Origin: an uncultured Candidatus Saccharibacteria bacterium
GTDB taxonomy: Bacteria; Patescibacteriota; Minisyncoccia; Phycocordibacterales; SBAW01
NCBI GenBank assembly: GCA_964615415.1
Contig: CAZTNI010000002.1
Coordinates: 4,873-68,872 of the forward strand
DNA length: 64,000 nucleotides
Reading direction: 5' to 3'
The position numbers and the translations under genes were made by a program. A model generated the notes under the pieces. It ran no database searches. It was not told where the DNA came from and was given only the letters and a program-made list of their open reading frames with translations. How positions within the stretch are numbered: position 1 is the stretch's first letter; each line of letters starts with the position of its first letter. Positions 13,650 to 41,370 of this stretch are shown piece by piece.

Positions 13650-13883
13650 ATGAGCTTTTCAGACGCGTGGGTGTGGTTCCTTGCTGGAATCGCAATTTTC
13701 GGCGTGTTGGCGATGTATTCTTCCCGGCGACACCGCCAGGCGGTGGACAACGCTGCGCGCTCCGGTACGGGCGACGTCCGGCAACTGGACGAAGAGCTTG
13801 GCCGCGGAGGCCTTCGTCTTCTGTGGTGGGCAATCACCATCATTTTCGTTCTTCTCTTTGTCGCCTCGCTTGTTGTGAAGTAG
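13650..13883 (+). CDS. small 2-TM membrane protein (GC-rich), paralog of the 14246 gene
   Basis: Shine-Dalgarno AAGGAGAGGG before the ATG; two hydrophobic helices; own putative promoter (TTGACA at 13574) and terminator. Confidence 0.5.
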   Translation: MSFSDAWVWFLAGIAIFGVLAMYSSRRHRQAVDNAARSGTGDVRQLDEELGRGGLRLLWWAITIIFVLLFVASLVVK

Positions 13884-13910
13884 TACGTCTTCGAGCGACC
13901 TCGACAAAGC

Positions 13911-13942
13911 CGCGTCAGTGCACTGCACTGACGCGGTTTTTT
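13911..13942 (+). terminator. rho-independent terminator
   Basis: CGCGTCAGTG...CACTGACGCG 10-bp stem followed by GTTTTTT. Confidence 0.7.
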
Positions 13943-14167
13943 CTTAAAAAAGATATTACTGAATGTTAGTTACTGCTGCACCGAGGTAGTACGGCCAAAT
14001 GACGATAGCAAGCACTCCTTGCCAAAACCCTAATTGCAAATACCCAATAGTAAAAAGCCATGCTGCAAACCAAAAACCTCCTGATACTGTGTGGTTTTCA
14101 ATTTTAATTTTTTCCATATGCCTCCATCATACTCCTTTTTGGAGAAGGAAAGGGGTATGGAGAAGTA

Positions 14168-14195
14168 TTGACAAAATGATATAAAGGTGTATAAT
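14168..14195 (+). promoter_or_regulatory. sigma70-type promoter (TTGACA-16-TATAAT)
   Basis: Exact -35 and -10 hexamers 50 nt upstream of the 14246 ORF. Confidence 0.55.
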
Positions 14196-14245
14196 TAAAC
14201 AGTAAGTCCTTCCCGTTTCGGGGCAATAAACAACAGGAGACCGTC

Positions 14246-14527
14246 TTGGATTTCATCGCTCAGTATTGGTGGTTGTGGCTCATTGGCCTGCTAATCTTTG
14301 GCGGGTTGATGACCATCAATCAGCGTCGTCGCGTACGAGGCATGATGCGGCCGATGTCGAATTTCCCCTCGAACCTTTCCTTCGGGGAATTCGACAAGAG
14401 CTTCCAGCAAGCCGCCGACAGCTTCCAGAAGGGCTTCGGCTCGATGATGCTGTTCTGGGTTCTGTTCGTTGCCTCTGGCGTTCTTCTACTCATCTCTGTG
14501 GTCGTCAACATTTTCCAGGCGATCTAG
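14246..14527 (+). CDS. small 2-TM membrane protein, paralog of the 13650 gene
   Basis: W-rich first helix (WWLWLIGLLIFGGLMTINQRRRVR versus WVWFLAGIAIFGVLAMYSSRRHRQ in the paralog); own promoter and terminator. Confidence 0.5.
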   Translation: MDFIAQYWWLWLIGLLIFGGLMTINQRRRVRGMMRPMSNFPSNLSFGEFDKSFQQAADSFQKGFGSMMLFWVLFVASGVLLLISVVVNIFQAI

Positions 14528-24818: not shown

Positions 24819-24822
24819 AAAT

Positions 24823-24855
24823 AAAACAGCTCTTTAAGAGCTGTTTTATTTTCGG
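24823..24855 (+). terminator. rho-independent terminator
   Basis: AAAACAGCTC-tttaa-GAGCTGTTTT followed by ATTTTCGG. Confidence 0.7.
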
Positions 24856-24964
24856 GGCGGAGTAAAACAAGTTGAGCAGGGGCTCCGCAGGCGCGACGGC
24901 GCCGAGGCTGAGCAAATTTCTAGCAAGAAATTATGAGTACCCTGCGAGACTTCGTTTTACGGAG

Positions 24965-26080
24965 CTATTTCTTCTCTGGAGTTCCGTAGGTCAATGCCAT
25001 GCGCATGTCCTTCGGCTCGAAGAGGGAGATAGTAAACGGATAGCGCTTGCCGAGTTCGAGTGCCTGACGAAGTTTTTCCTCGCTGCCAAACTCTGAGACG
25101 TGTACCAAGCCCGCGATGCCTTCCTCGATAGAGGCGAGTGCGCCGTGCTTGTTGAACTTGATGACAACGCCTTCGACTTTGTCGCCCTTGTTGTAGCGCT
25201 TGCCAGCCTCGCTCCAAGGATTTTCCTTGAGTGCTTTGACTGAAAGCGACACTTTGCCGTCCTTGATGTCGATAATTTTTACCTTGACGCGGTCGCCAAC
25301 TTTAAAGAAGTGGCGTGGATCATCAACAAGACCCCAGTCGATTTCAGAAATGTGTACGAGACCCTCGAGACCTTCTTCAATCTTCACGAAGACGCCGAAG
25401 TCCACCATGCCGGTTACCTCGCCTTCAACAACATCGCCCACCTGGTATGCGGCGATAAGCTGCTTCTTCTCTTTGTCGTCAATACCTTTTTCAGAGAAGA
25501 TAAGTTTGCCTTCCTTTGGAGATGCGCCAATAAGCGACACTGCGAGTTTTTCGCCTACCAACTTGCGGAGTTCATCAAGGATCTTGTCCTTGTCGCCATC
25601 CATAACGCGTGGGTAGTGCTCGGCCTTAAGCTGAGATGCAGGGAGGAAGCCTGCGATACCCTGCCACTCCATAATGAGACCGCCCTTGTTTGCCTCCTTA
25701 ACAACGAGCTCGAAGATAGTCTTGTTTTTAACTGCCTCTTCTGCCTCTGCCCACATAAGAGCCTGGCGAGCTTCCTTGAGAGAAAGTTCGATGTAGCCTT
25801 CCTTGCTGGTCGTAGAGATAACCTTTGCAGCAATGCGGTCGCCAACGTTGGTGCGCTTAATAACCTCGCGGGCATTCAAGTACTCGCGACCGAAGATAAC
25901 GCCGGTACCAAACGGCGGAAGGTCGATGTAGAGGCGTGCGCGGTCGAGCGCAATAACTGGACCCTCGACAATGTCTCCTTCTTTCGGAGGAGTAGGGGCC
26001 TTCTCTGCATATCCATGCATGAGGGTAACAACAGAACCGTCTTCTTTCGCAATATCTGCGACAGATTTCATAGCTGACAT
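24965..26080 (-). CDS. rpsA: 30S ribosomal protein S1 (short, four S1 domains)
   Basis: Repeated S1 OB-fold modules (GDIVEGPV, GDRVKVKIIDI and similar); 371 aa. Confidence 0.9.
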   Translation of the reverse strand: MSAMKSVADIAKEDGSVVTLMHGYAEKAPTPPKEGDIVEGPVIALDRARLYIDLPPFGTGVIFGREYLNAREVIKRTNVGDRIAAKVISTTSKEGYIELSLKEARQALMWAEAEEAVKNKTIFELVVKEANKGGLIMEWQGIAGFLPASQLKAEHYPRVMDGDKDKILDELRKLVGEKLAVSLIGASPKEGKLIFSEKGIDDKEKKQLIAAYQVGDVVEGEVTGMVDFGVFVKIEEGLEGLVHISEIDWGLVDDPRHFFKVGDRVKVKIIDIKDGKVSLSVKALKENPWSEAGKRYNKGDKVEGVVIKFNKHGALASIEEGIAGLVHVSEFGSEEKLRQALELGKRYPFTISLFEPKDMRMALTYGTPEKK

Positions 26081-26214
26081 AAAATAATATTGATTTGTAC
26101 GATGGGTCCCTCAGGTCGAGGATTAATCCCATGCGCTTTACCTAATAATATCGAGTGAACCGATATTGCGAGCAAGAATAGCACAATTTTTAGCCTTTGC
26201 AAGGCAATAGAAAA

Positions 26215-26240
26215 GGCCGCCGCGATAGGTCGCGGCGGCC
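26215..26240 (-). terminator. rho-independent terminator (minus strand)
   Basis: GGCCGCCGCGA-tagg-TCGCGGCGGCC perfect 11-bp stem followed by TTTTCTATT on the minus strand. Confidence 0.65.
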
Positions 26241-26254
26241 TGTACTGAGTGTGG

Positions 26255-26631
26255 CTACGAGAGAGCCGGTCTGCCCCAAAGGGGAAGGTAGGAGGCCCCT
26301 CGGGAGAGAAAGGCACCGACGGAATGCAGGGCTCCCCGAAACCGATCGCCGAGTGAAGGCTGCACCAGCGCTTCGAGTTCGACGATGACGATATCGAGCA
26401 TGGGGCCGAGTTCCTTGTCGCCGGGACCGAAGTCGAGACGACCATCTTCGTTGATAGCGAAGAACGGTTCAGGAACGGGAATCACTTCTCCCCCGCGCTG
26501 GCGAGCAAACATACCCGCCTCGTTCGAGAAGAACTCCGTGGTGGAGTTCGGGTCGAGCTGGGACGCGGCCGCCGCTACGACAAAGCATGCGCAGCCAGGA
26601 CCACAGCCAACAAAGCTTCTCTGTTGCATGG
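26255..26631 (-). CDS. hypothetical protein (GC-rich island)
   Basis: Shine-Dalgarno GGAAG before ATG (MQQRSFVGCGPGCAC...); about 65% GC against a roughly 50% background. Confidence 0.4.
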
Positions 26632-26790
26632 AGCTTCCTTTCGTTGTGGGTACATCGTCCAACCAGGATGGGTGGGCATGGCTACTATACAACGATATAA
26701 GAAAAAGAAAATGCCCCCGTTTTGCTTTCACAAAACGGGGGACTTGGGGGAGCGTCAGCGTGGAAGGATGAGGGGAAAACCCCCTCGAGA

Positions 26791-27321
26791 TCAGGCAGCG
26801 ATACGCTGCCTGACGTTGTCGTTGGCGACAGTCAGCCTCTGGGCGCCGCCACCTCCGGGGCGGCGAGCCGTGCCGAAGCCGTGATCCACTTCGTGACGGC
26901 GAAGGCGGATCGTGCCACCGCGCCGGCCGAACCGAATCGTCGGGTCGTGCACGAGGGCGATGAGACCGTAGTCCGAGTCCTGGATAGGCACCGGGACGCG
27001 GTCGTTGTCGGCGCGGGCGAGGAGCATCGTGTAGAAGTCCTCGAACGGGTCGGCATCGAGCCGCGGCGGCGGTGTGGTCCAGTCATCGAGCGGATCCATC
27101 GGGATCGTGAGCGTGACCATGCCGGAGGCAGCGCCATTGCCGAAGGCGAGGTCCATCACCATGGCATCGAGAGGCGGGCCATGCAGGCCGACCATCACGA
27201 TTTCGAAGTCGGGGGTGATTCCGCCACCACCGCCAGGGTCTGCCGAAAGCGGACCGGCTGTGGCGTAGGGGCCGCAGACAGCCGCGACGGCGGCGCCTGC
27301 GAGAAGAAACGTGCGTTTCAT
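26791..27321 (-). CDS. secreted hypothetical protein (GC-rich island)
   Basis: Strong Shine-Dalgarno AAGGAGGAAGG; signal peptide MKRTFLLAGAAVAAVCG; Gly/Pro-rich. Confidence 0.55.
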   Translation of the reverse strand: MKRTFLLAGAAVAAVCGPYATAGPLSADPGGGGGITPDFEIVMVGLHGPPLDAMVMDLAFGNGAASGMVTLTIPMDPLDDWTTPPPRLDADPFEDFYTMLLARADNDRVPVPIQDSDYGLIALVHDPTIRFGRRGGTIRLRRHEVDHGFGTARRPGGGGAQRLTVANDNVRQRIAA

Positions 27322-27830
27322 TCCGCCTTCCTCCTTCTGTTGCTAAAGAGCAGTTACGCCTCCGAATATACTCCAGTTGCAAAAAAGCGCAATAAGGGGC
27401 GTGTGCATAAAAAAGCCCCTCATTTTGAGGGGCTTTGGTTTGGGAGCGGTCTGTTGGTACGAGCCCTATTTTGTTTTCTCTCTTGGTAGAGAAGAACACT
27501 CAAGGGTTGTTCGTCGCTAGACTCCTTTGCCTCGTCAGAGGCGGTTCGTCGATCGGCGTGCCGTTCGTGGCTACGCCGTCATGGATGAGAGGTCGGCGCC
27601 GGCGTCATACTACTGGAGGGTGAGCGTGCGCTTCATCGAGCACTCCTGTGGTTGGGCCCAAAAGGACAGTACTTCTTAACTATACACCCAACGGGTATGT
27701 TTGTCAAGCTCTACCAAGTGTGTTCTAAAAATGGCCTAAAATAAGGCTTTTTAAGCCTATTTGCGAGTGTATACAAAACGAGCCCCATCGGCGAATGTCG
27801 ATGGGGCAGTAGTGAAAAAGGTCGAGACGG

Positions 27831-28046
27831 CTAGTCGAACTGGCCGCCCAGCTGGTGCTGGTGTTCAGCCTGCTGTTGCTGCCGAGGCGTTGCCCAGTGT
27901 TCGCGCTGGTTAGGCTGCGGCCCAGCAACGTCGCCGTCGATGTGTACGGGTTCGTGTGCCGGTTTTGCCGCCGGTATGTCCGGCAACTTGTTGTGGGGAC
28001 TTTGGGGGACGCCGCTCTCGTGTAGCTTGTGATGACCGGAAACCAA
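27831..28046 (-). CDS. hypothetical low-complexity protein (TTG start)
   Basis: Shine-Dalgarno AGGGAGAG before TTG; followed by its own hairpin terminator (CCCCATCG...CGATGGGG plus T-run); GC-rich. Confidence 0.3.
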   Translation of the reverse strand: MVSGHHKLHESGVPQSPHNKLPDIPAAKPAHEPVHIDGDVAGPQPNQREHWATPRQQQQAEHQHQLGGQFD

Positions 28047-28197
28047 GAGACTCTCCCTATTTGTATGTGGTGGTAAGATCTTGTTCGTTCCGACAAGAAT
28101 AACTCGAGTCAGACAACCTATTTACTATAGTTTTCAAGCTACATTCAGTCAATCTGTGAGTGGTGGAAGACTCTAAAAGATGCTATAATGAAGGGGT

Positions 28198-28815
28198 ATG
28201 GTTATTAACTACCTTGGCGGCGAGTGCTTCAAGATAACTCAGGGCGACCTCACGATAGCGTTTAACCCTCCTTCAAAAGATTCTAAGTTAAAGAGCCCGA
28301 AATTTGGTTCGGATGTTGTCTTTACGTCAATGAACCATGAAGACTTCAATGGTATTGAAAACGTCTCCTTTGGCGACCGCGAGCCATTTATTGTGAGCGG
28401 TCCTGGCGAATACGAAGTAAAAGGTGTTGCGGTGCGTGGCTTCGGTACCGACTCGACCTATGGCGGTGAGAAAACGATCAATACTATTTATAGTATTTTG
28501 CTCGAGGGAACGACGCTCTGCTTCCTAGGTGCCTTGGGTACTGGCGACTTGCCGACCGCCGCGAAGCAAGAACTCGATGAGATCGACATTCTTTTCCTCC
28601 CGATTGGTGGCGAGGGAGTTTTGGACTATGCAGCTGCATACAAGCTTGCGGTACAATTAGAGCCGAAGGCGATTATCCCGATGCACTACACGCCAGAAAG
28701 TTTGAAAGCCTTTTTGAAAGAAGCGGGCGAGACGGTTGCACCGGTTGAAAAACTGACCGTAAAGAAAAAAGATCTCGAAGGTAAGGAACAAGAGATCGTC
28801 GTGCTCCAATCGTAA
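28198..28815 (+). CDS. MBL-fold (Lactamase_B_3 / UPF0173-like) hydrolase homolog, metal motif degenerate
   Basis: VINYLGGECFKIT..., DVVFTSMNHEDF in place of HxHxDH, C-terminal IIPMHYTP. Confidence 0.6.
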   Translation: MVINYLGGECFKITQGDLTIAFNPPSKDSKLKSPKFGSDVVFTSMNHEDFNGIENVSFGDREPFIVSGPGEYEVKGVAVRGFGTDSTYGGEKTINTIYSILLEGTTLCFLGALGTGDLPTAAKQELDEIDILFLPIGGEGVLDYAAAYKLAVQLEPKAIIPMHYTPESLKAFLKEAGETVAPVEKLTVKKKDLEGKEQEIVVLQS

Positions 28816-31544: not shown

Positions 31545-31556
31545 GTGTACTATTCT

Positions 31557-32795
31557 ATGCCTTCCAGTAAAGAAAAGGGTGATCTGCTGGAAGAGATAAT
31601 TGAAGAACTGTGCGTAGGAATTAAAAATGTAAAAGTATCACGAAATTTAAAAATAATTGGTAAAAAAACTAAAGAAGAAAGAGAAATCGACGTTTATATC
31701 GAAGGAAAACAAGGAGTATTTGATATAAAAATTGCAATTGAATCTAAAAATTATGGAGAACCAGTGGGTGTTGAAAAAGTTGAGAGTTTCAAAGCAAAGT
31801 TAGAAGATATTGCTGCTGATTTAGGTGTAATGGTGTGTCCAACTGGATTTACAGAGCCAGCAAAAAAACGAGCAGAGTTTGACGGAATTCAATTATTTGA
31901 GGTGTATGATGAACGGCTGGGTAACAGCAAATGGTTTATTCCTATTCGTTTCATTGAACCTGAATTAACAAAACATCGCTTTACTTTTAAAGGGAGGGGA
32001 GGTGGTCCTTTCTCAATATCTATAGATTCACAAAAATGGAGATTTCATATAGAAGGGAAAATACTCACAACTGAAGAGTTCACCACCTATCTGTGGAATA
32101 AAGGAAAGATTCCTCAAAAAGCAGGTGAACATAAAATTGATCACGGCGCAGTCGTTATTAGTGAAGAAGGGAATCCAGATAAGGTGCAATATTGTGAAAT
32201 AGAAGTAGATGTTGTAGTTGAAGAGCGATATTTTTTAAAATTAATTCCAGCCTCTTTTCTTAAAAAAACTTCTGAAAATAAACAAAATTTCCAAATCAAA
32301 TTAGATCTCTATTCTAAGGAAAAAGACATGTTAAATAATGGTTGGAGAAAATTTCTCACTTTAGAAGAAATGAACCAAGCGGCAGATATTGAAAATCAAC
32401 CAGAAGGAATTAGGGGTTTAATATTGCATCCGAAGTATACGTATGAGTATGCTAAAAAGCACGAATTGCGTTTGCATCCGCGACCTTTCGAAAAGATTCG
32501 CAGCGGCAAGCAAATAATCGAGTCGCGGCTCAATGATGAAAAGCGTCAACAGATTAAAGTCGGGGACCATCTTGTGTTTGCTTTGCGGCCAGATTTTGTA
32601 GAAAAAGAAGAGGTGGAAGTGGTGGAGCTAATCCATGCGCCCACATTCCGCGACCTATTTCTTTCGCGTCCACTTACGGAATTTGGTATAGAAGATGGAA
32701 ACATTGAGCGAGTAGAAAATATGTACGAATACTACTCCAAAGAAGATGAAGCAAAATACGGAGTAGTTGGTATAAAATTTAAAAAACATGGCTAA
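31557..32795 (+). CDS. Mrr-like PD-(D/E)XK nuclease fused to a C-terminal ASCH (PUA-like) domain; candidate modification-dependent restriction endonuclease
   Basis: N-terminus: EIDVYIEGK ... IKIAIESKNYG (D...ExK restriction-endonuclease core). C-terminus: FEKIRSGKQIIESR...IKVGDHLVF...VEVVELIHAPTF...YGVVGIKFK matches the ASCH fold (compare E. coli YqfB). The N-terminal two thirds are about 32% GC; the ASCH part is about 47% GC. Confidence 0.65.
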   Translation: MPSSKEKGDLLEEIIEELCVGIKNVKVSRNLKIIGKKTKEEREIDVYIEGKQGVFDIKIAIESKNYGEPVGVEKVESFKAKLEDIAADLGVMVCPTGFTEPAKKRAEFDGIQLFEVYDERLGNSKWFIPIRFIEPELTKHRFTFKGRGGGPFSISIDSQKWRFHIEGKILTTEEFTTYLWNKGKIPQKAGEHKIDHGAVVISEEGNPDKVQYCEIEVDVVVEERYFLKLIPASFLKKTSENKQNFQIKLDLYSKEKDMLNNGWRKFLTLEEMNQAADIENQPEGIRGLILHPKYTYEYAKKHELRLHPRPFEKIRSGKQIIESRLNDEKRQQIKVGDHLVFALRPDFVEKEEVEVVELIHAPTFRDLFLSRPLTEFGIEDGNIERVENMYEYYSKEDEAKYGVVGIKFKKHG

Positions 32796-33343: not shown

Positions 33344-33841
33344 ATGGGTTTCTTTAGCTTCTTTTTTGGCGGGAACAAGAAGCCTGCGCGCCAGCAGTGG
33401 CCGCAGGACCGCTTTGTCCCGCCTCCGCCTCCTCCTGCGTCTGCTCATACTCATCGGCGGAAGCCGAGGTATGTCATCGGTCCGAATCGGAAGGTGTTCT
33501 ACCCGCAGCCGAATGGGACCTATCAGGCCGATGACGGCGCGGTCATCAACTCTGTCATCCTCCAGGGCTTGCTCGCGGATGGTGAGGTGGGCGGGTACCG
33601 TGCGGTTGAGACGTTGCCGGCTGACCTGGTGCGTCATCCGCAGCCGCCCAGCATGGGACACGGCGTGCCGGTCTTCGACGCTCATGCGCATCATCGCCAT
33701 GACCACGGACTGCATCATCGTCATGAACCGGCTCACACGCCTTCCGGCTTCGATTCAAGCCCGTCCCTGGGTGGTGGCTCTGACACAGGCGGTGGCTCTT
33801 CTGGCGGGGGCGACTCCGGTGGCGGAGGTGGGAGCTTCTAG
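33344..33841 (+). CDS. Pro/His/Gly-rich low-complexity protein (GC-rich islet)
   Basis: Shine-Dalgarno GGAAAGGGA; PPPPPP, HAHHRHDHGLHHRHEP and GGGSSGGGDSGGGGGS tracts; own terminator. Confidence 0.5.
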   Translation: MGFFSFFFGGNKKPARQQWPQDRFVPPPPPPASAHTHRRKPRYVIGPNRKVFYPQPNGTYQADDGAVINSVILQGLLADGEVGGYRAVETLPADLVRHPQPPSMGHGVPVFDAHAHHRHDHGLHHRHEPAHTPSGFDSSPSLGGGSDTGGGSSGGGDSGGGGGSF

Positions 33842-33865
33842 CACTCTTGTTCTTCTATAATATGC

Positions 33866-33900
33866 AGCCGCGGCACAAAGTGCCGCGGTTTTTCTTTTTG
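33866..33900 (+). terminator. rho-independent terminator
   Basis: CCGCGGCAC-aaa-GTGCCGCGG followed by TTTTTCTTTTT. Confidence 0.7.
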
Positions 33901-33939: not shown

Positions 33940-34362
33940 ATGCAGACAATTGAAGACAAACCAAAGGTAATAGAAAAGGTTGCGTGGACATACATACGCG
34001 ACGGCAAAGTGCTCATGGCTCGCTCACGTGAACAAACACTTTTTTATTGCCCTGGCGGCAAGATAGAGAGTGGCGAGACGCACGTGCAAGCGCTTGTCCG
34101 AGAAATCGACGAAGAGCTTGGTGTCAGTATTGTCCCTGACACGATAGAGGCGTTTTGTTTGGTTGAAGGTCCGGCGCATGGCCGTCAGGACACGCTGCTC
34201 CGCATGCACTGCTACACGGCAGACTATGTAGGAATGCTTACTCCTTCGGGAGAAGTCGAAGAATATGATTTTCTTGGTACTTCCAAAGAGGATCTGGCGC
34301 GAACAACCGAGTCTGGCCGCCTCTACCTTGCGCAAGTGCAGGTGCGCGGGCTTATTGCCTAA
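33940..34362 (+). CDS. NUDIX hydrolase (MutT-like)
   Basis: Nudix box GGKIESGETHVQALVREIDEELGV. Confidence 0.8.
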   Translation: MQTIEDKPKVIEKVAWTYIRDGKVLMARSREQTLFYCPGGKIESGETHVQALVREIDEELGVSIVPDTIEAFCLVEGPAHGRQDTLLRMHCYTADYVGMLTPSGEVEEYDFLGTSKEDLARTTESGRLYLAQVQVRGLIA

Positions 34363-34416
34363 GCGCCTGCATTTGCTACGATGCGCAGTATCTAGCTTTC
34401 AACAAGGGAGAGTAAG

Positions 34417-34713
34417 ATGACGCTTAAGCAGCGTCGGCGCATCAAGCGCCGGAATGGAATTCATGTGCCTACCCGCGCTTCGAAGCGCGGGTGGAAGGCG
34501 CGGGGCTTTATGGCCCTTGCTTTGGCACCGACGCCGCCGCGCGCTCCGGAGCCGGTCGCGGTACGCACTGTGGCGTCCAAGCCTCGTGTGTTGCCGGGGT
34601 CGACCCCTACGAAGCCGAGGGTCGCGCAGTTGCCGGAGTCGCTCATGAAGCCGGTCAGGCGCCCTCGGCGCAAGCAGCCGCATCCCGACGAGGAGCTTGC
34701 AGCAGCCGAATAG
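34417..34713 (+). CDS. small basic Pro/Arg-rich protein (GC-rich islet)
   Basis: Shine-Dalgarno GGGAGAGTAAG; KQRRRIKRRNG; own strong terminator. Confidence 0.5.
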   Translation: MTLKQRRRIKRRNGIHVPTRASKRGWKARGFMALALAPTPPRAPEPVAVRTVASKPRVLPGSTPTKPRVAQLPESLMKPVRRPRRKQPHPDEELAAAE

Positions 34714-34735
34714 CCTGCACTGTTCTTTTAATATC

Positions 34736-34766
34736 GCCGCACCCTCACGAGGGTGCGGCTTTTCTT
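34736..34766 (+). terminator. rho-independent terminator
   Basis: GCCGCACCCTC-acga-GGGTGCGGC followed by TTTTCTT. Confidence 0.7.
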
Positions 34767-34821
34767 AATCGTATCTTTAGCGGCACTGTAAGAAAATAAG
34801 ATCTCACACATCATATAGGGT

Positions 34822-39135: not shown

Positions 39136-39170
39136 AACGGCGGGCCCTGAAAAGGGTCCGCCGTTTGCGT
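39136..39170. terminator. bidirectional rho-independent terminator
   Basis: AACGGCGGGCCC-tgaaaa-GGGTCCGCCGTT with an A-run upstream and TTGCGTT downstream. Confidence 0.7.
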
Positions 39171-39181
39171 TGTAGAAGGTA

Positions 39182-40063
39182 CTAGAAACAGACGTAGAGG
39201 CTGGTGCGTGGTGAGTGCGGAATGCAGAGCGTGTGCGAGATGGTCGCCTCTGCGGTAACTGCCTGCACCGAGTAGATGCTGTACGCAGTTACCACCACGT
39301 CGCCGCGCACACAGGCGCGGTCTATCACCACTTCGCCCGCGCGGTTGAGGAAGGCAACACAGCCCGACTCGACCACCCAGCGTAGCTCGCAGCCGTTTGC
39401 ACTGATTACTCGCGGTTCTTCTCCTGCCCGAAGGGGGAGAAGTTCCGACGTGCCAGGGCACGCGGCTGCTGCTGCACTTTCAGAAAATGGCCACCACATT
39501 GTCTCTACGATCTGGGCGCGTGCCGAGGAGACGAGCCCCAAGGTCACAACGACCGCAAAGAAGGTGAGTGCAAGATGGTTAGGCTTCATCGCGCCGGGGC
39601 TTATCATCGAAATGATGATGAGGACGACGAGGTAGGCGATCGACCCCACGAGAATACCCACCAAGATAAGAAGAGCGATGTCTGTCACGAAGGACAAGAC
39701 CGGCTCTGGGATCACCCTGGTAACATTCTCGTACACTTCCGGCGGCACAATCGTCACGAGGGCGGTCAGGCCGATGGTAAGGAAGAGAACCGGAGCCCAT
39801 GCCCACCAGTACCGCCAGATGCTGCTTCGTCCGGACGATGTGTCCGACGAAGAGGTTTCAGAGGCGTGTTCCTCGTGCCCATGATCCTCCGCGTGTTCGT
39901 CGTGGTGGTCGTCTGCATGATGGTCGGTGTGAGGTGCCGGAGCAGTCATGGTCTCCTTGATCCTTTTGGTGCGACGATGGTCGCGATACAAGCCAAGGGC
40001 GACGATACTGAAGAGCAGTAACGCCCCCACTAGAGCAAGTGTTGCTATCTGTCCTACTGTCAT
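39182..40063 (-). CDS. polytopic membrane protein with a His-rich loop and a C-terminal soluble domain (possibly NfeD-like)
   Basis: HTDHHADDHHDEHAEDHGHEEH tract; four TM helices; C-terminal approximately 100-aa soluble domain; start overlaps the upstream SPFH gene stop (ATGA). Confidence 0.45.
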   Translation of the reverse strand: MTVGQIATLALVGALLLFSIVALGLYRDHRRTKRIKETMTAPAPHTDHHADDHHDEHAEDHGHEEHASETSSSDTSSGRSSIWRYWWAWAPVLFLTIGLTALVTIVPPEVYENVTRVIPEPVLSFVTDIALLILVGILVGSIAYLVVLIIISMISPGAMKPNHLALTFFAVVVTLGLVSSARAQIVETMWWPFSESAAAAACPGTSELLPLRAGEEPRVISANGCELRWVVESGCVAFLNRAGEVVIDRACVRGDVVVTAYSIYSVQAVTAEATISHTLCIPHSPRTSLYVCF

Positions 40064-41370
40064 GGAGTGTCAGGTCCTTGTGGCGGAGTAGTGCCGCTGG
40101 TACGGTTTCTCCGGTCAGGGTTGCGCAGAGCGTCGAGAATAGCCACCTGTACTGGATCAACGGACGGGCCGCTGGTGCCAGGGAGGATAACCATTCCGCC
40201 TGCTTCGCCGGCAGCTTTCGCTGCACGGACCATTCCTTCGATGTGCGGAATCGCTTCCGCACCTGGGTGAGTCTTGAGAGCCTCGCCCTGTTCGCGAATG
40301 TCGGCTGCCTTGCCTTTTGCGCGCTCTTCCATCGCCTGACGGTCGATGCGAGCAATGGCGAGGTCGCCGAGAGCATCATATCGACTCTTGTCAGACGGGC
40401 TGATGTCGAGTACTTGGACAGAGGGAAGTGCGATGCCGAACTCAACGGCAGCGCCCTGCATGATGACGCCTCTTATAATGCGACCATTCTCGTTGAGAAT
40501 AGTTTCTTCGAGCTCGCGCACTAGCGCAGGACTTTCCGCCGACAACACAGCTTCAAGAGGCCGGGGCCTCGTATAATGCGTTACCGAGTCAGAGATCGTT
40601 GCGATAAGACGTGTACCCCAGTCGTCGTCCGAATTGTACGCAGTGAGGTGCGGATTGAATACCCGCGCTATTGCGTTGACAAGGATTTCGACCGGGATCT
40701 TGTCCTTCGTGTCGGCAGCCGGTACCCGCAAGGGGAACTGGAAGTCGCCGACGCGATAGTGGTCGCTCCAGTCAAGGAGTCGACGAAGTTCGATCTCGCC
40801 ACCGCTTTGCGTGATCTTCTTGAAGTGCTCAAGAGGATAGGTGCGGACTTTCTGGAACGGGTAGATGCCGGTAAAGACAGCACCCGTCAACCAGTACACC
40901 CACTCCTTCCACAACCAGAAGAGAATGCTGAGCGGCGAGTAGAAGATCCAGAGTATTGTCCATATCCCGTACAATCGCTTGGTGGGAAATGGAATAGGAT
41001 CTGAGCCGCCTGAGTAGATAGAAGGGACTACCTCCCAGTAGTGAACGTCTCGGATGGTGTAGCCGCTTGCAGGATCTTCGCCGAGGAACATCTTGTCGTG
41101 CGATTTCATAATCGCGTACTTAAAGAGGTCGCCTCGCTCGATTATCTTCACCTTCTCGGGTTCGATGTAGGTGAAGTAGCCAAAGTCCGACTTCTCGTGG
41201 TCTGGTGCTGTGCCGAGGTCGTCGTGCACGGTGTCCGTAGTGCCGCGGTATTTATTTGGCCTGTTGGTGAGTCTGTCGATAAGACCCGGCCACAATGGCA
41301 GCAGAAAGAGAAACAAAACTACGCTACCAAGAATGCCCAGTGCGTAGCCAAGAACCGGATCTACGATCAT
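40060..41370 (-). CDS. SPFH/band-7 (stomatin/flotillin-like) domain protein with an unusual 180-aa N-terminal 2-TM region
   Basis: SPFH core pattern (TKDKIPVEILVNAIARV...VEFGIALPSVQVLDISPSD) plus a coiled-coil tail; about 60% GC. Confidence 0.65.
   Translation of the reverse strand: MIVDPVLGYALGILGSVVLFLFLLPLWPGLIDRLTNRPNKYRGTTDTVHDDLGTAPDHEKSDFGYFTYIEPEKVKIIERGDLFKYAIMKSHDKMFLGEDPASGYTIRDVHYWEVVPSIYSGGSDPIPFPTKRLYGIWTILWIFYSPLSILFWLWKEWVYWLTGAVFTGIYPFQKVRTYPLEHFKKITQSGGEIELRRLLDWSDHYRVGDFQFPLRVPAADTKDKIPVEILVNAIARVFNPHLTAYNSDDDWGTRLIATISDSVTHYTRPRPLEAVLSAESPALVRELEETILNENGRIIRGVIMQGAAVEFGIALPSVQVLDISPSDKSRYDALGDLAIARIDRQAMEERAKGKAADIREQGEALKTHPGAEAIPHIEGMVRAAKAAGEAGGMVILPGTSGPSVDPVQVAILDALRNPDRRNRTSGTTPPQGPDTP

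Follow-up and report, generated by a model that had tools for sequence, protein, structure and literature searches.

Hotspots and flexible genomic islets of bacterial chromosomes are generally described as sites where conserved core genes, kept in a conserved order, enclose a content of atypical composition that varies in length and sequence from one genome to the next. Acquired DNA in bacteria is more often AT-rich. [quoted passage not shown] The locus considered here is the 2117-bp gap between rpsA and a gene of the metallo-β-lactamase (MBL) fold in a 64,000-nucleotide stretch of contig CAZTNI010000002.1, hereafter the window. The source genome, of about 50% guanine plus cytosine (GC), is read as a reduced, episymbiont-type Candidatus Adlerbacteria (Paceibacterota, CPR), the closest relatives of its rpsA being all from Adlerbacteria or Paceibacterota metagenome-assembled genomes, with 80-86% protein identity in data holding one genome per species. 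The content of the gap, hereafter the islet, lies between core genes that are divergently arranged and comprises four units, all on the minus strand, namely C71, T2, A176, and B124 (C and B below; Table 1). With a probability of roughly 0.6, we read the islet as the local content of a hypervariable gap, made of four small, independently terminated units, at least two of which, B and C, are true protein-coding genes passed down in the lineage. As such, it is a real, well-delimited and lineage-specific but fairly ordinary accessory hotspot with orphan small proteins.

The variability of the gap appears from a set of 44 loci, i.e., 43 related species and a second assembly of this genome, with the MBL gene and rpsA oriented as in the window. 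Those loci preserve the order gyrA-orf82-MBL-[gap]-rpsA-pth-lepB, and the gap itself spans 125 to 2117 bp, a 17-fold range with a median of about 730 bp, the gap of the window being the longest. Among the 320 open reading frames (ORFs) found in these gaps, only 7 cross-locus pairs are similar. At the DNA level, the islet aligns with any relative over three elements only, namely the leader of rpsA, the promoter block of T2 and the divergent promoter beside the MBL gene. By tblastn, the proteins of A176, B and C were not found in any related-species locus, B being present in a sister population only. An assembly artefact is ruled out, the same DNA having been assembled independently from two further runs (three times in all) and an independent contig of 1035 bp matching the islet at 100% identity.

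The evidence for B comes from this sister population. On contig L062, from another metagenome, the ortholog of B (P0003) is 57% identical over its full length and lies directly upstream of an rpsA 96% identical to that of the window over the first 170 residues. By the Nei-Gojobori method, B and its ortholog differ by 0.31 non-synonymous substitutions per non-synonymous site (dN) and 1.16 synonymous substitutions per synonymous site (dS), i.e., a dN/dS of 0.27, and dN in the same sister comparison is 0.025 for rpsA and 0.047 for the MBL gene. The first 19 codons (MQQRSFVGCGPGCACFVVA) show 8 synonymous and no non-synonymous changes, and the remainder reaches a dN of 0.39. Because changes in these 19 codons are exclusively synonymous and dN/dS is 0.27, constraint acts at the protein level; on these sequence data, B reads as a genuine gene evolving some 7-12 times faster than its neighbours at non-synonymous sites. 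Its hydrophobic N-terminus suggests that B is exported, and this invariant, Cys-rich segment could serve as a signal anchor or as a metal site. B does not qualify as a lipoprotein by the lipobox ([LVI][ASTVI][GAS]C closing a signal peptide, with Cys near position 15-35), C9 having only 8 residues before it and C13 and C15 being preceded by Pro or Gly. The CGPGCAC motif was also considered as a leader shared by a family of paralogs, which was rejected, the motif occurring once in the window and otherwise in the ortholog only (window and fetched loci). It is also seen, as a side observation, on an unrelated metagenome contig (L063; Ga0068855_100155639), where a 112-aa ORF (1002-1340) ends with ...MECGPGCACFY immediately upstream of a 353-aa ORF (1363-2424); by eye, the former resembles an FKBP/SlyD-like protein and the latter a CobW/G3E-type GTPase.

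For C71, the argument is one of position and motifs. The ORF has GC contents of 0.78, 0.39, and 0.71 at first, second and third codon positions (GC1, GC2, and GC3) and is also called by a gene caller. On L065, a contig of the sister sample carrying the MBL gene, the leftward promoter is kept and followed by an ORF starting MVAGHHKHH... with ATG and a GGAGGA Shine-Dalgarno sequence, against TTG and MVSGHHKLH in the window, the N-terminus MV[SA]GHHK being common to both. In L066, whose rpsA is 90% identical, as well as in L002, L012, and L009, the first ORF after the leftward promoter carries the motifs CSVG.DP, QP.ER.DD.APKQQQ, and DVAGPQP, and C71 keeps the last two of them, as DVAGPQP..R.EH and QP..R....P[KR]QQQ (compared with L066, L002, and L012). 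C71 is thus probably a genuine gene, i.e., the version found in the window of a small-protein family residing in the gap. With 12.7% His and no export signal, its product would be a His-rich cytoplasmic protein.

A176 is likely, though unproven, to be a real gene, with a product exported through Sec. The N-terminus of this product, MKR / TFLLAGAAVAAV / CGPYATA|G, displays by inspection what is expected of a Sec signal peptide, i.e., a positively charged n-region, a hydrophobic h-region of 7-15 residues and small residues at positions -3 and -1, with a peak of hydrophobicity of 2.49 over residues 5-16; a lipobox was not recognised, the sequence A-A-V-C having Val at -1. The GC contents at the three codon positions (0.72, 0.525, and 0.785) follow the order GC3 > GC1 > GC2 and are coding-like, and gene calls made on independent assemblies include this ORF. 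None of these coding features is displayed by the 255-aa ORF on the antisense strand, which starts with TTG, lacks a Shine-Dalgarno sequence and has a GC3 below its GC1. As regards relatives, a search of 5.8 billion protein clusters returned A176 itself only, and a HMMER scan of 1.84 billion representatives gave a single, repeat-summed match to a 973-aa protein (E 1.6e-6, 33-39% identity over about 50 residues). A176 would look orphan because the divergence of genes in the gap is fast enough to erase their homology inside the family, close relatives being moreover sparsely sampled. A Calx-beta domain, suggested for residues 30-80 by the repeat of the 973-aa protein, which looks Calx-beta-like by eye, was discarded with no Pfam match at E ≤ 1.

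Signal-peptide proteins also occur in the gaps of relatives. Many of the longer ones hold signal-peptide ORFs in the orientation of rpsA, with a GC3 of 0.76-0.90 whatever the GC3 of the core genes of the host (0.50-0.82). Some of them form a family, named here GHAPPLI (L002, L005, L008, and L009), of signal-peptide proteins of 118-196 aa with the motifs GHxL and GHAPPL[IL] and a GC3 of 0.76-0.90, which was found only in the MBL-rpsA gap of one subclade and has no Pfam match. A176 was considered as a diverged member of this family or as a relative of the protein in the gap of L014; profile and pairwise comparisons were non-significant (best E 0.76) and the resemblance comes down to short look-alike strings, i.e., GLHGPPLD and DPGGG..TP.

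The independence of the four units is apparent from their bounding signals. In the scan of the islet, 4 promoter-like sites were found against 1.0 ± 0.9 in shuffled sequences, and 7 terminator-like sites against 2.8 ± 1.7. Sigma-70-like promoters match two of the four units (C and T2) and intrinsic terminators all four. Five minus-strand hairpins qualify as rho-independent terminators, at 26214-26241, 26714-26741, 27415-27433, 27733-27757, and 27782-27807, the third being seen in the sequence and its fold and missed by the terminator scan. Several of these signals recur in relatives. L064, L065, and L066 show 74-82% identity over the divergent promoter region that adjoins the MBL gene, both hexamers of the C promoter being intact in L064 and L065. 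The region 27700-27751 is 80% identical to positions 7430-7483 of L066, where conservation extends over the -35 region of the T2 promoter and further upstream, and a hairpin equivalent to that of B is found in L062. Just downstream of the islet, rpsA is preceded by a conserved promoter and a structured leader of its own. Since each unit has its own terminator, DNA of the gap could be gained, lost or rewritten without disturbing the expression of rpsA and of the MBL gene. Much of this organisation had been recognised in an initial annotation made from the letters of the window. The three ORFs it had singled out, i.e., one with a signal peptide and a textbook Shine-Dalgarno sequence, one with the CGPGCAC motif and a TTG-started one of 71 aa, are indeed present as A176 (GGAGG), B (124 aa) and C71. 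Of its four hairpins, the first and the last two were recovered, the one placed at 27404 actually spans 27415-27433, and that at 26714-26741 comes in addition. The insulation by terminators it had proposed was borne out, yet single small ORFs bounded by promoter and terminator are the norm in this genome and such insulation is thus not special to the islet.

Table 1. Features of the islet and its flanking genes (positions in the window).
Feature	Position	Strand	Description
rpsA	24965-26080	-	Four S1 domains; 51.5% GC
B-unit intrinsic terminator	26214-26241	-	12 pairs, 10 of them G-C, then TTTTCTATT; sets the islet apart from the promoter and leader of rpsA
B124	26255-26629	-	124 aa; invariant N-terminal MQQRSFVGCGPGCACFVVA (carries CGPGCAC), fast-evolving remainder
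A176-unit intrinsic terminator	26714-26741	-	12 pairs, then CATTTTCTTT
A176	26791-27321	-	176 aa; GGAGG 8 nt 5' of ATG; run of five Gly; 22% Gly+Pro
T2	27409-27672	-	Unit of about 265 nt without ORF of at least 30 aa on its own strand; ends with hairpin 27415-27433 and U-tract
T2 promoter-like site	27679-27707	-	TTGACA-17-TATAGT; score 11/12, best match in the islet
AT-rich second hairpin	27733-27757	-	From the terminator scan; conserved block also comprising the upstream portion of the T2 promoter
C-unit intrinsic terminator	27782-27807	-	9 pairs, 7 of them G-C, then T-rich tail
C71	27831-28046	-	71 aa, His/Pro/Gln-rich; TTG start, GGGAG Shine-Dalgarno sequence
C-unit promoter-like site	28124-28152	-	TTGACT-17-TATAGT; scan score 10/12; divergent region common with the MBL-fold gene
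MBL-fold gene (Lactamase_B_3)	28198-28815	+	48.2% GC

Several points weigh against the reading of the islet as a set of small genes in a hypervariable gap. A176 has no ortholog in the searches made and thus no evidence of conservation for its translation, no promoter of its own passing the scan, and a signal peptide that is a judgement by eye. The AlphaFold models are uninformative for A176 as well as for B, with a predicted local distance difference test (pLDDT) score of 29 and 46, respectively. The sister contigs L062 and L065 (JGI sample 3300050209) break inside the islet, at its edges, leaving the span of A176 and T2 uncovered. The relationships of C71 are not detected by phmmer and its homology is one of short motifs and synteny, hence the reliance of the argument on these.

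The base composition of the islet raises the question of its origin. Over 26197-28100 its GC content is 59.0%, reaching 62.0% in the left 1.2 kb (26197-27400), against 50.1% for the whole window, and it constitutes the GC-richest 1.9-kb stretch of the window (maximum 0.592, start 26215). By element, GC amounts to 67.6% for A176, 61.1% for B, 62.5% for C71, and 53% for T2. The initial annotation was right about a rise, not about the level of 63-65% it gave for this interval, and the jump of about 15% it described over the flanks exists with another size, i.e., 8-10 points for the interval and 10-19 for the ORFs. GC3 is 0.785 for A176, about 0.70-0.71 for C, and 0.66 for B; with an average of 0.493 ± 0.070 over 50 long genes in the window, A176 stands about 4 standard deviations above them. 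Codon-usage log-likelihood, tried as a test of alien origin, was uninformative because the codon bias of the genome is weak.

By its composition (59, 62, or 68% GC depending on the part considered, against 50%) and by its site, absent or different in related genomes, the islet has two of the traits of a horizontally acquired island. The first alternative, which is compatible with the preferred reading, is a recent horizontal acquisition of A176, and earlier of B, from a high-GC donor, either a relative among the Adlerbacteria or an unrelated bacterium such as a host, the GC content being not yet ameliorated; we regard it as tentative, with odds well under even. The GC3 of A176 is in its favour. 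So is the Mrr_cat and ASCH gene lying directly 3' of gyrA (31545-32795, plus strand; 36% GC, GC3 0.27), a low-GC outlier about 3 standard deviations under the mean of the window and 3.4 kb from the high-GC islet, which makes the genome a compositional mosaic. Members of the family range from 36 to 62% GC, hence high-GC donors exist within it. In L014, the gap holds a gene for a 192-aa protein with a GC3 of 0.875 in a genome with a core GC3 of 0.50. Foreign DNA is even recognisable in the equivalent gap of L033 (JAGWLV010000001.1), where a 101-aa ORF (spacer positions 1241-1546), enclosed by two core genes of Adlerbacteria in a contig of 75 kb, is 75% identical to a Bradyrhizobium porin over its first 60 residues and matches Pfam Porin_2 (E 7.5e-13); among the plasmid-database matches listed, all are from genera of Hyphomicrobiales. 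This fragment is either captured alphaproteobacterial DNA or an assembly chimera.

The searches for a donor or a vehicle went the other way. The protein searches revealed no homolog in a donor lineage for A176 or B, the 5.8-billion-cluster search giving none for A176 and HMMER adding the one weak repeat match. Viral contigs, phages and plasmids gave no match to A176, B or the DNA of the islet, be it as protein relatives in viral contigs or as DNA in phages and plasmids; a phage or plasmid origin was rejected on these grounds. There is no tRNA near the islet, no integrase or transposase Pfam hit in any frame, and no meaningful direct or inverted repeat flanking the islet or its units, only short chance matches having been found. 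More generally, the ORFs of the islet, together with the nine longest alternative frames for domains, matched nothing in Pfam, NCBIfam, PHROGs, PADLOC, and the sequences of PDB. A diversity-generating retroelement was likewise rejected, positions 25900-28400 holding no repeat of more than 28 nt and no reverse transcriptase appearing in Pfam scans of the islet and tested neighbour genes, the wider genome being unsearched. Besides, the GC3 of B is high in both lineages (0.66 in the window, 0.78 in L062, where rpsA has 0.465) despite a dS of about 1.1, and the apparently vertically inherited C family is GC-rich relative to its low-GC hosts as well, which favours a maintained property over a relic of transfer. 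The GC and GC3 excess is a property common to the gap genes across the family, whose cause would be either the foreign origin of high-GC DNA or some process that favours GC locally, possibly biased gene conversion at a recombination-prone site. The repeated acquisition from a high-GC donor put forward in the initial annotation finds no backing in these searches; such an acquisition remains plausible, if unproven, because of the discordant GC3 and of the porin fragment and GC3-rich gene in the gaps of L033 and L014.

The other option of the same annotation was that the islet and its recurrences elsewhere in the window represent a class apart, made of surface or effector genes that evolve fast. 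The fast evolution holds, for B by its dN, for C at the level of motifs and for the gap at large by the non-homologous content of the 44 loci. Recurrence holds for 33351-33900 and 34301-34800, with at least 60% GC and single ORFs bounded by promoter and terminator, and fails for 13650-14527, with 48-53% GC; all three sites are without known domains. These GC-rich mini-genes being compositionally heterogeneous, a single class is unsupported. A surface or effector role is suggested by the signal peptide read by eye in A176 and by the hydrophobic N-terminus of B; C71 has no export signal. Under the preferred reading of a hypervariable gap, B and C would be inherited within the lineage, diverging about 7-12 times faster than their neighbours at non-synonymous sites, and the products of the gap would be small proteins, either exported or of the envelope, together with a cytoplasmic one rich in His, under weak purifying to diversifying pressure. 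Their likely role would be to interact with an episymbiont's host or cell surface.

T2 is the unit without a protein. Its fold has an energy of -90.8 kcal/mol (z = -4.0), terminator included, and at its 5' end an AGGAG Shine-Dalgarno sequence precedes a very short ORF, MKRTLTLQ. T2 could be a small RNA, a gene in decay, or else a 5' leader or attenuator of A176. The option of a conserved small RNA was rejected, the promoter block alone aligning with L066, where the body of T2 is not conserved. No Rfam family was recognised in T2 or the islet, the window yielding tRNAs only at gathering score; at E ≤ 10, positions 25900-28300 gave noise only, the best hit having 23 bits against a gathering score of 55, and a large structured or known RNA family was discarded accordingly. 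The leader reading, in which the peptide MKRTLTLQ and the attenuator hairpin at 27415-27433 would control read-through into A176, accounts for A176 having no scan-passing promoter of its own, for the Shine-Dalgarno-preceded ORF of 8 codons at the start of T2 and for a terminator ending 88 nt before the ATG of A176. It is nonetheless unlikely: no alternative anti-terminator pairing is demonstrated, the body of T2 is unconserved in L066, where A176 is absent, and a weak promoter-like sequence, TTGCGC-16-TATATT, lies between the T2 hairpin and A176. The 8-codon ORF (27615-27640, minus strand) also resembles the start of A176, MKRTFLL (27297-27321), with about 18 of 24 nt matching; this likeness may be fortuitous, or may mean that T2 is what remains of a paralogous signal-peptide gene.

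A bolder extension of the preferred reading is that this gap, and similar ones, form a standing nursery for small exported proteins of Adlerbacteria, where high-GC DNA of neighbours or hosts would be captured, put under resident conserved promoters and turned into fast-evolving, GC3-rich surface proteins. We give it little credence; if true, the content of such gaps would record the identity of the host or partner and drive the specificity of host interaction.

The birth of A176 de novo, from previously non-coding GC-rich gap DNA where few stop codons open long ORFs, is improbable. The lack of any homolog found and of a confidently predicted fold for A176, the long ORFs on both strands, including the antisense one of 255 aa, and the 17-fold variation of the gap among relatives would all fit with it. 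The bona fide gene B, however, falls to 57% identity where rpsA keeps 96%, and at such a rate the absence of homologs is expected for old genes too; the signal peptide of A176 is complete, its Shine-Dalgarno sequence strong and its codon positions ordered as GC3 > GC1 > GC2; and no alignable non-coding precursor was found in any relative, the contigs of the closest one stopping at the edges of the islet. It is just as improbable that A176 is not a gene, or that the islet is largely non-coding, with ORFs as by-products of high GC and with T2-like transcripts or structured DNA as the functional part: high GC does give overlapping long ORFs in several frames and the ORF-less T2 does have the best promoter, a strong terminator and a fold of z -4.0, but B is constrained at the protein level (8 synonymous and no non-synonymous changes, dN/dS 0.27), the start codon, Shine-Dalgarno sequence and N-terminus of C are conserved in L065, A176 has a frame-specific GC, a Shine-Dalgarno sequence and a signal peptide that its antisense ORF lacks, and no Rfam family is present.

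Beyond the islet, some other features of the window and of its core-gene block deserve to be recorded. Between the islet and rpsA, the 5' leader of rpsA (26086-26172, minus strand) lies behind a TTGCAA-N16/17-TAT(A/T)(G/C)T promoter and consists of two hairpins, the second being GGGA[TG]TAA-stem-loop-stem-ACCC, followed by CGTACAAA..CAATATG. From 26 Adlerbacteria sequences, RNAalifold predicts 11 pairs, 10 of them with compensatory changes. The leader has no Rfam match, and neither an S1 leader nor the Parcubacteria, Patescibacteria or candidate phyla receive mention in a survey of ribosomal leaders published in 2020. The element stands as a candidate leader for autoregulation by S1. On the other side of rpsA, the gap to pth (24819-24964) is 146 bp in the window and 1.5-5 kb in some relatives (compared with L007, L041, L042, and L043), and the core-gene block is hence variable at more than one of its gaps. 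A perfect sigma-70 consensus (TTGACA-16-TATAAT, 12/12) at 14168-14195 precedes the plus-strand ORF 14246-14527, of 93 aa and hydrophobic-ended, with a GC3 of 0.75 though its surroundings have only about 53% GC. Another stretch of at least 60% GC, at 39151-40450, which is missing from the initial annotation, corresponds to two minus-strand ORFs, namely 39182-40063 (GC3 0.68), coding for 293 aa without domain, and 40060-41370 (GC3 0.64), coding for 436 aa with a sub-threshold Band_7/SPFH match.

Considered alone, the islet of this window is an ordinary accessory islet. Its interest is that a gap reliably holding small, predicted exported, fast-diverging proteins allows candidate host-interaction genes to be found between conserved anchors rather than by homology, and that the rate of B explains why such genes look like orphans. 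The high-GC3 signature, opposite to the usual AT-rich one, would, if general, call for a cause, i.e., the identity of a donor or a GC-biased repair or recombination.

Compared with chromosomal hotspots and flexible genomic islets, the gap shares the conserved core genes and their order on both sides, a content variable in length (125-2117 bp) and in sequence, an atypical composition and the presence of foreign DNA in the same gap of one relative. It differs by its very small size (2 kb), by the integrase, tRNA, insertion sequence and flanking repeats that were not found, by the deviation towards high GC and by at least two of its genes being vertically inherited and merely fast-diverging. Compared with precursors of toxins and effectors, where a conserved leader precedes a hypervariable mature part, B has the identical N-terminus of 19 residues and the diverged remainder; unlike them, it has neither leader-sharing paralogs in the window and fetched loci nor adjacent modifying or export genes, and the likeness is one of sequence pattern. 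The Cys-rich, metal-binding C-terminal tails of SlyD-like FKBP proteins offer a further parallel, the CGPGCACF of B being also found at the C-terminus of the ORF on L063, which suggests that this motif may bind metal; in B, the motif is N-terminal, within a hydrophobic segment, and no other similarity exists, hence this is a lead only. Finally, the islet resembles the orphan small hypothetical or secreted proteins of CPR bacteria, with small ORFs devoid of database relatives, one signal peptide and a reduced, episymbiont-type genome; it departs from them in that here a rate is measured for B, a positional continuity is seen for C, and the genes are enriched in GC3 relative to their genome.

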